Shown: piece by piece, positions 52,987-63,089 of the stretch | Position numbering within the stretch: position 1 is the stretch's first letter | Layout of the letters: every line of letters begins with the position of its first letter | Source of the DNA: Dictyostelium discoideum | Lineage: Eukaryota | Length of the DNA: 64,000 bases | Assembly (NCBI GenBank): GCA_000004695.1 | Contig: CM000155.2 | Location: forward strand, 2,048,001 to 2,112,000 | Direction of reading: 5' to 3' | Program-made: the position numbers and the translations under genes | Notes under the pieces: model-generated | Told to the model about the DNA's origin: nothing | Seen by the model: the letters and a program-made list of their open reading frames with translations, nothing else | The model's database searches: none

Positions 52987-54786
52987 ATGAAACTTATATT
53001 AATTTATTTAATTTTAGTTTTTAATTTATTTAATTTTATAAATTGCCAAAATATATTAAAAGTTTCAAATGTAAGATTTGCCCAAACTCATGTAATACCA
53101 ATTGAAGGAAAATCATGGAATATTCAAGGATCAACTAAACATATGTCGATAGTTGGTAAAAGAAGAGCATTACTATTAGCAAGTTTTCAAGACCAAAATT
53201 TAAGTTATTTCGCTACAATTTGGTATGATGGTGGAAAGGTTGGTATGATTCAATTAAATGATCCAAGTCAATTACCACTAACCGAAGATAATGGTGAAAA
53301 GTATTCAAAAGTTCACCATTCTGGAATGATTCCAAAGGAATGGGTAAGAGTAGGAATGAAAATTCAATTCTCTTCATTTGGTGGGATAAATGGTACTGAA
53401 GTATCAGATATTCTAAGTCCAGATGTTGGTCAGGATTATACTTTGAAAATGTGGATATTACCATTTTACTTATTTGGTGCAAATGATACTAACACTCAAC
53501 CATTCTCAAAGACAAAAGGAATTGATTCAGGGATTTCTAAAGAATTAATTGAAAAATGGTCATGTTCTGATTTACAAGCTGATAATCATCCAATCCAAAA
53601 AATTGATTGGCCATACTTTGTAATGGAACCAAGAAGTGGTAATCCTGCAATGGTAATTACAAATTCTGATCAAAAGAAAGATGGTTATGCAATTATGAAT
53701 GGTGTTTTGAGTATACTATGGCTACTTAGAGGAATGTTTGGTGAATCATCTTCATCAATTCAAATTTATTCACCACTTTTACATTTGGATGCAAAAGGTA
53801 GGTATGCAGATACTTACGGGGGGCTAGGTGGTAGTTCAGCAGGTACTGGAAATCATAGATTCACTGGTATCTTTATTCATGAACAAGGTCATGCAATGGG
53901 TTTGCCACATGCTGGTGAAGCATATGATAATAAAAGAAAATACCCGTACAAACAAGGAAGTTTATCAGGATCAGAATGGGGTTTCGACGCAAATCATAAT
54001 GAATTTTTGGGTACTTTTATTCCTCCAACTGCAGAACTTTACAAAACTTGTAAAAAAAATTCAATCATTGATAGCAAAGGTCGTTGTGTTAAGCAAAGTG
54101 TTATGCAAAGTGGTGCTGGTGATCAGTCGTCAAAATATAGGTATAGTATGTTTGCAGATTTTGAAATGACAACAATTCAAAATTATTTTAAAAATTCAAT
54201 TTATTATGACGAAACAAATGGTAAATATAAAAAATGGAATGATACATCTAAATCTTACTATGCGTATAAACCAATTACTAAAGAAAAAGGATTTGAAGGT
54301 GTTGATGAAAATACACCAATTGAAAGAAATGTTGATATCTATTCAATAATATTCACATATAGTACTGTTGAGAAACCAAAGGTAGGGAAAATATCACAAA
54401 TTTATCCATTACTAAAATCAAAAGGTAATTTAATTAGACAATTCGATCCAACTAATAAAAAAGAAATGGATTCTGTTAATCCAAAATTGAATGGTGAATT
54501 TAAATGGTATTGCAATAGTAGTGGTTGTGATTATACAATTAGAGTTACATTTTATGATAGTTCATTAAAACATGTACTTTTACAACAGGGCAAACGTAAA
54601 TATAAATTACCAACTGGTTCTTTCAGAGATAATATAAATGATCCAAAAAGTTCTGATAGTTTCATGTTAGGTGGTGTTAATATCAAAGCAAATAAAAAAA
54701 TTAAAAAAGTTGAATTACTAGAAACTCCATTTGCATGGAATGGTATCCCAAAAAATCCAACTGTTTTAGTTTCAAAATCATTTTAA
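52987..54786 (+). CDS. Dictomallein-like secreted zinc metalloprotease (peptidase family M66, StcE/mallein-like), paralogue 1
   Basis: Signal peptide MKLILIYLILVFNLFNFINC (the ATG at 52987 is preferred over the upstream ORF start at 52927). The conserved N-terminal domain reads VRFAQTHVIPIEGKSWN. The HExxH zinc site FIHEQGHAMGLPHAGEA is at ~53875. About 60-75% identity to the three downstream paralogues. Confidence 0.75.
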   Translation: MKLILIYLILVFNLFNFINCQNILKVSNVRFAQTHVIPIEGKSWNIQGSTKHMSIVGKRRALLLASFQDQNLSYFATIWYDGGKVGMIQLNDPSQLPLTEDNGEKYSKVHHSGMIPKEWVRVGMKIQFSSFGGINGTEVSDILSPDVGQDYTLKMWILPFYLFGANDTNTQPFSKTKGIDSGISKELIEKWSCSDLQADNHPIQKIDWPYFVMEPRSGNPAMVITNSDQKKDGYAIMNGVLSILWLLRGMFGESSSSIQIYSPLLHLDAKGRYADTYGGLGGSSAGTGNHRFTGIFIHEQGHAMGLPHAGEAYDNKRKYPYKQGSLSGSEWGFDANHNEFLGTFIPPTAELYKTCKKNSIIDSKGRCVKQSVMQSGAGDQSSKYRYSMFADFEMTTIQNYFKNSIYYDETNGKYKKWNDTSKSYYAYKPITKEKGFEGVDENTPIERNVDIYSIIFTYSTVEKPKVGKISQIYPLLKSKGNLIRQFDPTNKKEMDSVNPKLNGEFKWYCNSSGCDYTIRVTFYDSSLKHVLLQQGKRKYKLPTGSFRDNINDPKSSDSFMLGGVNIKANKKIKKVELLETPFAWNGIPKNPTVLVSKSF

Positions 54787-54818
54787 AATCTTTAAAATTT
54801 AGATTTGTTGTTTATATT

Positions 54819-54880
<62 letters not shown>

Positions 54881-60210: not shown

Positions 60211-61064
60211 ATAATTTTTTTTTTTTGATAAATTTTTAAAAAATAAATAATAATAGAGTCTTAATTTTAAATTAATTTTTAAAAAACAAATATTATAATA
60301 TTTAATATATTTTTATATGTTGGTTTATTTTAAATTACATGAAATTTAAATGGGGGTATGAATGAATTTAAATAATAATAATTTGTTTTTGGAAAAATTT
60401 ATTTTTAATAATAAATAAAAAATAAAAAAAAAAGATTTATTTTTTATAATTGAACAAACAAAAATTATAATTTGTTTATTATTATTTTAAAATAATTTAA
60501 GTGTACTCTATACTATAATCTGTTTAATCTAGATTATTAAAGTAAATTGTTTGTTTTTCGTTATTTTTTTTTTTTGTTTTTTTTAATTTTTTAAAAATGA
60601 GTTTTATCTAAAGGTAATCTACCACATTCTAACCTTAATACTGGTAAATTAATATTGATTATTTTTGTGTAATTTTCTGACTTTGTAATGGGAAAAGATA
60701 AAAATCTAATTTTAGAAATAGTGGATAATAAGTTTAATATATTATTATTGTAATTTTAAAAAAAAAGGAGTTTGTTTATTTTTTTTTTTTTTTTATTCAC
60801 TTTTTTTTTTTTTCCTTTTTTTTTTTTTTCTATTCACATTTTTATTATTTATTTATTCAATTAAAAAACAAAAACACAAGCACAGAAATTTTATTTTTAA
60901 GTAATTTTAATATAGAATAACCATTTAACAATATTGTAATATGAATTTATTAACACATATATTTTAACCCCTTTTTTTTTTTTTATTTATAATTTTTCAT
61001 TTAAATAATGGTATAAAAAAAAAAAATAAAAAAAATAAAAAAAAAATAAAAAAAAAAAAAACAA

Positions 61065-63089
61065 ATGAAAATATTTATTATAAAAATAATATTAGTACTC
61101 TTTAACTATGTATTATTAAGTTATTCAATAAATCAAGATTTAAATATTTTAAATGTATATGATGTTAGATTTGCACAAACTCATGTTATACCAATTGAAG
61201 GTAAAAGTTGGATACTTAATAATAAAACCTATACATTAACGATTGTTGGTAATAGAGATTCATTGTTATTAGTTAAATTTATTGATATATCAATAACAGG
61301 AACATCATCAATCAAAACAGTAACAACAAAAACAACCAAAGAAGAAATAAAAGCAACAATATTAACAAACACATATAATGTAATGGTATGGAATAATGAT
61401 ATAGTAATGGGAACACGTTTATTAAATGATCCAAATCAATTACCACCAACAGAATCAAATGGAGAACAATATTCAAATGAACATCATAGTATAATGATAC
61501 CAAAAGAATGGGTAAAACCTGGTATGAAATTGCAATTTTTTGAAAATTCAAATAGTTTTATAAAGAGTTCAAAATTTATATTTCCAAATGTTGGTCAAGA
61601 TTATACATTAAAAATGTGGACATTACCATTTTATTTATTTGGTGCAAATGATACAAATACAAGACCATTCAATCAAACTAAAAACATTGATGATAGTATA
61701 AGTGCTGGTTTAAGTCAAGTTTATTCATGTTCAAATATTTTATCATTAAATCATCCAATTCAAAGGGTAGATTGGCCTTATTTAGTATTAGGACCTAGAA
61801 ATGGTTTACCTGGAATGTTAATTACAAATTCAGATCAAAAAAAAGATGGTTATGCAATAATGGAAGGTGTATTAAATATTTTAACAGGAATTAGAGTTGC
61901 ATTTGGTGAATCAACATCATCAATTCAAATATATGCACCATTATTACATTTAGGTGCAAATGGTAAATATGCTGATACCTATGGAGGTTTAGGGGGAAGT
62001 TCCAGAGGTACAGGAGACTATAGGTATGTAGCTCAATTGAGTTTTCTATTATAATAAACTCACTTTCAAATATTAAAACCAAATTAAAAAAAAATTAAAA
62101 ATAAACCTAAAATTTAATTCTGAATCTAATGGTATATTTTTTAATAATTTATAACCAAATTAAAATATTTATATAGATATTCTGATACATTTGTACATGA
62201 ACAAGGCCATGCTATGGGATTACCCCATGCAGGGGAAGCTTTTGCATCTGGCTCATACCCCTATGTAAATGGTAGTCTACTAGGATCAGAATGGGGTTTC
62301 GATATTAATCATTATGAATTCCTTAGTATTACCCTTTCAAATACATCAAAAAACTATAAAGGATGTGAAAAAAAGAATGTTAAAGATACACAAAATCGTT
62401 GTGTTAAACAAAGTGTTATGCAAAGTGGTGCAGGTGATAGATCATCAAATTATTTATTTAGTATGTTTTCCGATTTTGAAATGTCAATTATTCAAAATTA
62501 TTTTAAAAATTCAATTTACTATGATGAACAAATTGGAAAATATAAAAAATGGAATGAAACTATTGGTTCATATTATGAATATAAACCAATTACAAAAGAT
62601 TATGGATTCTATAGGCTAGATGATGGTATACCAATTGAAAGAGATATTGATGTCTATACAATTGTATTTACCTATAGTTTGGTTGGACCTGAACCATTAT
62701 CACAAATTTATCCATTACTTAAATCAAAAGGTAATTTAATTAGACAATTTGATCCAACTAATAAAACTGAAATGAAATTAATTACACCAAATACCGGTTC
62801 AATTCCATGGTATTGTTTTAATAGTGGTTGTGATTATACAATTAGAGTTACCTATGATGATGATTCAATTAAACATATACTCCTTCAACAAGGTAAACGT
62901 CAATATTGGAAACCAATGGGTGATTTTAAATTAAATTTTAATGATCCAACAAGTTCTGATAGTTTCTTATTAGGTGTAATAAATGTTAAAGCAATAAAAA
63001 CAATTAAAAAGGTTGAATTATTAGAAACTTTAATGGCTTGGAATGGAATATCTAAAAATTCAAAACTATTAACATTTAAATTATTTTAA
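61065..63089 (+). CDS. Dictomallein-like M66 metalloprotease, paralogue 4; join(61065..62033,62177..63089), with a ~143-bp intron just upstream of the HExxH site.
   Basis: Two ORFs (61065-62054 and 62214-63089) are joined by a GTATGT donor at 62034 and a TATAG acceptor at 62176 (phase 2), giving ..GTGDYR|YSDTFVHEQGHAMGLPHAGEA.. The N-terminal domain carries an extra Thr/Lys-rich insert (ISITGTSSIKTVTTKTTKEEIKATILTNT) absent from paralogues 1-3. Confidence 0.7.

Follow-up and report, generated by a model that had tools for sequence, protein, structure and literature searches.

The window analysed here is a 64,000-nucleotide stretch of the Dictyostelium discoideum AX4 genome (assembly GCA_000004695.1, contig CM000155.2, forward-strand positions 2,048,001 to 2,112,000), with a G+C content of 24%, on a contig of 3,602,379 bp which we take to be chromosome 6. 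Between positions 52987 and 63089 it carries a head-to-tail array of four genes, which is the already annotated dictomallein-2, -3, -4 and -5 cluster. Our account of this known cluster, to which we give a probability of about 0.85, is that it encodes secreted proteases of peptidase family M66, that these go back to an ancient bacterial ancestor, and that the array grew later by tandem duplication. Gene identities, family assignment and tandem order are already in public databases; what is added here is the history of the array, the evidence for four functional copies, and a probable intron gain by the active site. In a literature search no paper on dictomallein genes was found, only the database names.

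An exact-sequence look-up showed that the four products are identical at every residue to UniProt Dictomallein-2 to -5, with matching order and strand. Three of the genes are intronless, namely dictomallein-2 (DDB_G0292822, Q54CQ0; positions 52987..54786, 599 amino acids), dictomallein-3 (DDB_G0292824, Q54CP9; 55859..57652, 597 amino acids) and dictomallein-4 (DDB_G0292826, Q54CP8; 58426..60210, 594 amino acids). Dictomallein-5 (DDB_G0292828, Q54CP7) has two exons, at 61065..62023 and 62177..63089, the second of which carries the zinc motif, and it is the spliced product of 623 amino acids that matches the database entry exactly. All four genes lie on the forward strand. An earlier note on this DNA, made from its letters only, had proposed four same-strand M66 paralogues at this place, and the open reading frames (ORFs), the full-length Pfam matches and the database identities all agree with it. 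Two of its details fall away. The spacing of 1.0-1.1 kb that it gave is not what is measured, the spacers between consecutive genes being 1072, 773 and 854 bp, and the lysine-rich extension that it ascribed to the first paralogue is an artefact of a run of 17 adenines (52966..52982, forward strand) in the 5' leader of dictomallein-2. This run is in frame only for a mechanically called ORF that starts with TTG at 52927 and reads through it; the database protein begins at the ATG at 52987. The paralogues share 63-74% of their amino acids and 72-83% of their nucleotides, far above chance. A tblastn search over the whole window recovered these four genes and one 35-codon fragment and no further M66 copy, and neither a tRNA nor an Rfam family was found in 50000..64000.

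Membership in family M66 is supported by the Pfam comparison that the earlier note had suggested: all four proteins match Peptidase_M66 (PF10462) over profile positions 1-306 of 306, with 459-485 bits against a curated cutoff of 20.6 bits and E values from 1e-138 to 1e-146 (3.8e-141 for dictomallein-2). The zinc motif HEQGHAMGLPHAGEA is common to all four without change, as had been claimed, and the HEQGHAMGLPH codons lie on the forward strand at 53878..53910 (dictomallein-2), 56759..56791 (dictomallein-3), 59323..59355 (dictomallein-4) and 62196..62228 (dictomallein-5). The motif follows the HExxHxxGxxH pattern, and His301, Glu302, His305 and His311 of dictomallein-3 are invariant across 71 dictyostelid and bacterial homologues. 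The N-terminal motif VRFAQTHVIP.EGK.WN described before is likewise found in every copy, with the small variations VRF/VRL, THV/THI and WN/WI. Each protein starts with Met-Lys followed by a hydrophobic core (12-residue Kyte-Doolittle mean 2.7-3.4), which fits a predicted signal peptide, and a hydrophobicity scan of the four proteins revealed no membrane-like segment besides this core. The earlier description of genes of about 600 amino acids with a signal peptide is thus borne out in length, its signal peptide being assigned by a hydrophobicity heuristic only.

At the structural level, an AlphaFold2 model of dictomallein-3, built with the 71 homologues as input, reached a mean predicted local distance difference test (pLDDT) of 95.1 and a predicted template modelling (pTM) score of 0.91. 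In this model an alpha/beta catalytic domain stands between two beta-rich domains, one N-terminal and one C-terminal, and the first 20 residues form a low-confidence helix. StcE of Escherichia coli O157:H7 (plasmid pO157; PDB 3UJZ), a mucin-selective O-glycoprotease, is the type peptidase of MEROPS family M66, and it is also the sole sequence relative found in the PDB with phmmer (E 1.9e-12, residues 255-429). Searched with Foldseek against the PDB, the model matched no fold convincingly except that of StcE (E 6.1e-24, TM score 0.54, 16% identity); one other match lay at E <0.001, a potassium-channel/nanobody-MBP (maltose-binding protein) entry with a TM score of 0.13. The C-terminal region of dictomallein-4 has a weak, sub-threshold match to the TagA domain (E 0.006, 17.5 bits versus a cutoff of 25), and the other three proteins have none. 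Met375 is invariant in the alignment of M66 homologues; its assignment as a metzincin Met-turn was dropped, M66 being described as without the conserved methionine (PMC7518263).

The Thr-rich insert reported for the fourth paralogue is present as a 26-residue Ser/Thr-rich segment (11 Ser/Thr) in the N-terminal domain of dictomallein-5 (residues 75-100, positions 61287..61364, forward strand). The length of the insert differs from orthologue to orthologue: D. cf. discoideum has the longest form, with a run of Thr, D. dimigraforme keeps just a few residues, and D. firmibasis lacks it. In this the insert behaves like an expanding low-complexity loop.

The distribution of homologues bears on the origin of the family in Dictyostelium. 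Among the best 120 homologues (244 further matches lie beyond them), all 21 named eukaryotic ones belong to dictyostelids of the genera Dictyostelium, Tieghemostelium, Cavenderia, Polysphondylium and Synstelium, and every other named homologue is bacterial. When one genome was scanned for each bacterial species, near full-length matches came from Paraherbaspirillum (45% identity), Oxalobacteraceae (44%) and Ralstonia (42-44%), and likewise from Lysobacter and other Lysobacterales, Nevskiales, Sphingomonas and other Sphingomonadales, Myxococcota, Deinococcales and further groups. For Paraherbaspirillum, Oxalobacteraceae, Ralstonia, Lysobacter, Deinococcales and Myxococcota the identity is 37-45%, measured along about 95% of the protein. 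Within the best 120, dictomallein-3 is as similar to bacterial proteins as to those of Cavenderia and Polysphondylium. The very name 'dictomallein' seems to allude to relatives of the Burkholderia mallei type. The earlier statement that M66 is mostly bacterial agrees with the named matches, all of which are bacteria or dictyostelids, and needs one correction, since a cluster of expressed sequence tags from Emiliania huxleyi has StcE as its best match (PMC2784329) and the family is therefore not strictly dictyostelid among eukaryotes.

A neighbour-joining tree was computed from 121 sequences (579 columns, 200 bootstraps), and StcE and an M66 protein of Vibrio were taken as outgroups. This is the phylogeny with StcE homologues that the earlier note had proposed, and it gathers the dictyostelid proteins into one clade within an otherwise bacterial family, with a bootstrap of 85% without Synstelium and 63% with it. 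Its root is split: 51% of bootstraps nest the dictyostelids among sequences of betaproteobacterial type, and 40% place them beside the outgroup. Because the outgroups are bacterial too, the dictyostelid clade is bordered by bacterial lineages at either root. The genes themselves are of host composition: their G+C content at third codon positions is 0.10-0.15, compared with 0.80-0.89 for the nearest bacterial homologues. In six species the neighbours of the M66 genes are eukaryotic. The eukaryotic flanks, the synteny across species and the host codon composition together argue that the dictomallein genes are truly integrated and are not contamination; the spliceosomal-type intron of one copy, dictomallein-5, is in line with eukaryotic integration.

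The best reading of these data, and one that we hold to be quite probable, is a single ancient transfer before the dictyostelid radiation. One ancestral gene would have come from a soil bacterium (the nearest living relatives are Burkholderiales such as Oxalobacteraceae and Ralstonia), and the acquired gene would then have shifted fully to the base composition of its host. The direction of transfer and the donor are inferred. The candidacy for horizontal acquisition raised in the earlier note is upheld by the distribution, the identity to bacterial proteins and the single dictyostelid clade, with the qualification that the transfer is ancient and that nesting among bacteria is seen in only 51% of bootstraps.

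Two observations weigh against this reading. About two thirds of the best 120 homologues are metagenome proteins without a species name, so other eukaryotic carriers are possible, and the 40% of bootstraps that join dictyostelids and outgroup favour vertical descent, in which M66 would have been present in an early eukaryote or an amoebozoan ancestor and lost nearly everywhere but in dictyostelids. The outgroup joins the dictyostelid clade in the best neighbour-joining tree as well, a StcE-like sequence is expressed in the unrelated eukaryote Emiliania huxleyi (PMC2784329), and no compositional trace of foreign origin is left in the genes. We nevertheless regard vertical descent as unlikely, since every named eukaryotic match in the best 120 is a dictyostelid, the full-length identity to bacterial proteins (37-45%) matches that between distant dictyostelids (39-47%), bacteria stand on every side of the clade, and nearly all dictyostelid copies are intronless.

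Several independent bacterial transfers into separate dictyostelid lineages, if anything even less likely, would account for a monophyly of just 63% when Synstelium is included, for the bacterial sequences that outscore those of Cavenderia and Polysphondylium in the best 120 when dictomallein-3 is the query, and for the differing contexts of the single-copy genes in D. purpureum, Tieghemostelium and the dictomallein-1 locus. However, the best tree unites every dictyostelid sequence in a single clade, supported at 85% without Synstelium, and no bacterial sequence falls inside it. One transfer into the common ancestor thus stays the preferred explanation.

The later growth of the array can be followed in relatives. 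In the lineage of D. discoideum, D. citrinum, D. dimigraforme and D. firmibasis, tandem duplication would have taken place between the genes of an AFG1-like ATPase and a Na+/H+ exchanger. The second D. discoideum assembly and D. cf. discoideum have the AFG1 gene, four M66 genes and the Na+/H+ exchanger as in the window, and D. firmibasis has three M66 genes between the same flanks. D. dimigraforme, with these flanks too, has two intact M66 genes and a remnant of dictomallein-4, and dictomallein-2 is missing. This remnant (8409..9079 of the D. dimigraforme locus, L008) is a pseudogene that retains residues ~19-91 and 452-594 in broken frames, the whole catalytic domain being deleted. D. citrinum carries an inversion with one breakpoint in the dictomallein-4/-5 spacer, so that, compared with D. 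cf. discoideum, its dictomallein-5 orthologue adjoins MCM5 and is split from the dictomallein-4 and -3 orthologues. Single M66 genes in unrelated genomic contexts are found in D. purpureum, in Tieghemostelium lacteum and at the dictomallein-1 locus.

In the tree described above, the array clade is supported at 100%, as are the dictomallein-5 and dictomallein-4 orthologue groups; the dictomallein-2 group reaches 90%, the dictomallein-3 group 88%, and the grouping of dictomallein-2, -3 and -4 97%. From these supports the array is placed after the dictomallein-1 and D. purpureum branches had split off, and the copies would have arisen in the order dictomallein-5 first, dictomallein-4 next, and the dictomallein-2/-3 pair last. 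Tandem amplification after acquisition, as the earlier note had proposed, accords with this fully supported clade; the amplification is confined to the D. discoideum clade. Since then purifying selection would have maintained the copies, and relatives would occasionally have lost or rearranged them. A separate observation concerns KAM9994300.1, a D. cf. discoideum protein of 1222 amino acids, about twice the normal length, that groups with dictomallein-3 and probably arose when the annotation pipeline joined two neighbouring tandem genes.

Evidence that the copies are still in use comes from substitution rates. Orthologues in five related genomes have an open frame in every comparison, with ratios of nonsynonymous to synonymous divergence (dN/dS, or ω) of 0.09-0.25, and dictomallein-5 is the most constrained of the four (ω 0.09-0.15); the neighbouring AFG1 ATPase gene, taken for comparison, has a dN/dS of 0.06-0.08. 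The open orthologue frames and these low ratios argue that all four copies are maintained by purifying selection and hence still functional. The pairwise comparison of paralogues suggested in the earlier note was also run; pairs differ at 26-37% of protein positions, with dS 0.40-0.81 and dN/dS 0.29-0.39. Dictomallein-4 and -5 are 89% identical over a short patch that directly follows the zinc motif (codon columns 331-360). Gene conversion was considered for it and is not claimed, as dictomallein-1 and the D. purpureum protein have the same residues in the patch, which a retained ancestral state explains.

The second assembly, GCA_054859355.1, is labelled D. discoideum. Against positions 50835..63997 of the window it differs by about 6-10% of its DNA overall, with dS of about 0.10-0.14. 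An excess of polymorphism in the array (dS 0.10-0.14 between AX4 and this assembly) was rejected, since AFG1 behaves alike (dS 0.133) and the difference is one of genome-wide strain divergence. This divergence looks large for one species, and the assembly may represent a cryptic species or a mislabelled strain.

The intron that the earlier note had placed near the active site of the fourth paralogue is confirmed as a GT..AG intron at 62024..62176 (forward strand). It is 153 nt long, begins with GTATGT, ends with TATAG, has a G+C content of 0.16, and stops 19 nt upstream of the HEQGH codons. If left unspliced, the frame would end 10 codons into the insert, after ...GDYRYVAQLSFLL. This premature stop is what would be expected of a dictomallein-5 gene disabled by a 153-bp insertion beside its active site and no longer a functional intron-bearing gene. 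We consider such a loss very improbable, as an intron is found at the same site with lengths of 153 nt in AX4, 137 nt in the second D. discoideum assembly and 195 nt in D. cf. discoideum, with the canonical GTATGT and TATAG ends kept in all three despite the differing lengths. Furthermore, both exons are open and constrained between AX4 and D. cf. discoideum (ω = 0.144 for exon 1 and 0.165 for exon 2), the gene is under the strongest constraint of the four, and the curated database protein uses the 62023/62177 splice. That both exons stay constrained after the gain argues that the intron is spliced out.

The orthologues of D. citrinum, D. firmibasis and D. dimigraforme lack the intron, as do all paralogues and all other homologues; in these, GAYTATAG is followed directly by ATAYTC. 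A single gain accounts for this pattern much more parsimoniously than an earlier gain with two or three precise losses after it, and we therefore favour as the likely history a recent gain, in a gene of bacterial descent, that can be placed on the species tree. The insert is flanked on both sides by the short direct repeat TATAG. This could be read as a target-site duplication left by a staggered break or a mobile element, and is suggestive only, part of the repeat being sequence that splicing requires. A comparison of the intron with the rest of the window showed no similarity beyond A-rich low-complexity runs. The gain is only a mildly new observation here; if true, it would be a clean case for how new introns arise in Amoebozoa.

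One further duplication was found within the array. A segment of about 358 bp in the dictomallein-3/-4 spacer (57785..58142, forward strand) is a tandem copy of the upstream region and first 35 codons of dictomallein-4, with 97-99% identity to its source. It contains an orphan ORF of 41 codons (58014..58139) that encodes only the signal peptide and a few residues (MKLVLIFLIINFFLFINCENLIKVLDVRLAQTHIIVHLIYY, then a stop codon). The segment is not present in two other assemblies of the D. discoideum group, and because of this absence it is assigned to the AX4 lineage alone. Upstream of the array lies the AFG1-like ATPase gene (51022..52605, forward strand; Pfam E 1e-94). Downstream, an ORF on the reverse strand (63344..63763) has no Pfam match and sits where the 3' end of the Na+/H+ exchanger gene would be expected by synteny with D. 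firmibasis, the second D. discoideum assembly and D. cf. discoideum.

The closest known systems are bacterial M66 proteins of the dictomallein type, as found in Paraherbaspirillum soli, Oxalobacteraceae GrIS 1.11, Ralstonia, Burkholderia pseudomallei and Lysobacter. They align collinearly with the dictomalleins along about 95% of the sequence, with 37-45% identity, and share with them the HEQGHA(F/M)G, PFYLFGA and CxKQxxMQ motifs as well as the N- and C-terminal beta domains. Some bear additional fibronectin-III or cadherin-like domains. Unlike the Dictyostelium array, their genes have no introns and form no four-gene array in the loci seen. StcE has the same Pfam family, the same HExxHxxGxxH zinc site and a related N-terminal motif (VKFAQSQILP versus VRLAQTHVIP), but with 898 amino acids it is about 300 residues longer, and its gene adjoins type II secretion genes on a plasmid. 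The M66/StcE-like protease of Yersinia entomophaga and TagA of Vibrio cholerae are described as secreted virulence-associated proteases or mucinases (PMC10847046); they belong to M66 like the dictomalleins, but stand on the StcE side of the family, and nothing seen in the dictomalleins points to filament formation or to virulence.

Taken with the predicted fold, these comparisons suggest how the dictomalleins would work. Each would be made as a precursor of about 600 amino acids that begins with a signal peptide and has the M66 catalytic domain between two beta-rich domains, one on its N-terminal and one on its C-terminal side. By homology with StcE, His301, His305 and His311 (dictomallein-3 numbering) would bind zinc and Glu302 would activate water for peptide-bond cleavage, as in clan MA zinc proteases including StcE and M66, in which histidines hold the metal and a glutamate is the catalytic base (PMC7518263). 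Judged from their N-termini and catalytic domain, the dictomalleins are most likely exported from the cell or into the endo-lysosomal lumen and act there as endoproteases.

With regard to the substrate, two residues of StcE near its glycan-binding cleft, which we take to be Trp366 and Tyr457, seem to have no counterpart, as they do not appear among the positions aligned to StcE by phmmer. A mucinase specificity of the dictomalleins is therefore doubtful. In a literature search no experimental or expression data on any dictomallein were found. A StcE-type preference for O-glycosylated mucins is possible but unsupported. StcE substrates are mucins (PMC7518263), and by analogy with StcE and TagA alone the substrate may be an O-glycosylated mucin-like protein. 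The target of the dictomalleins could be bacterial prey, or else the glycoprotein matrix of the amoeba itself.

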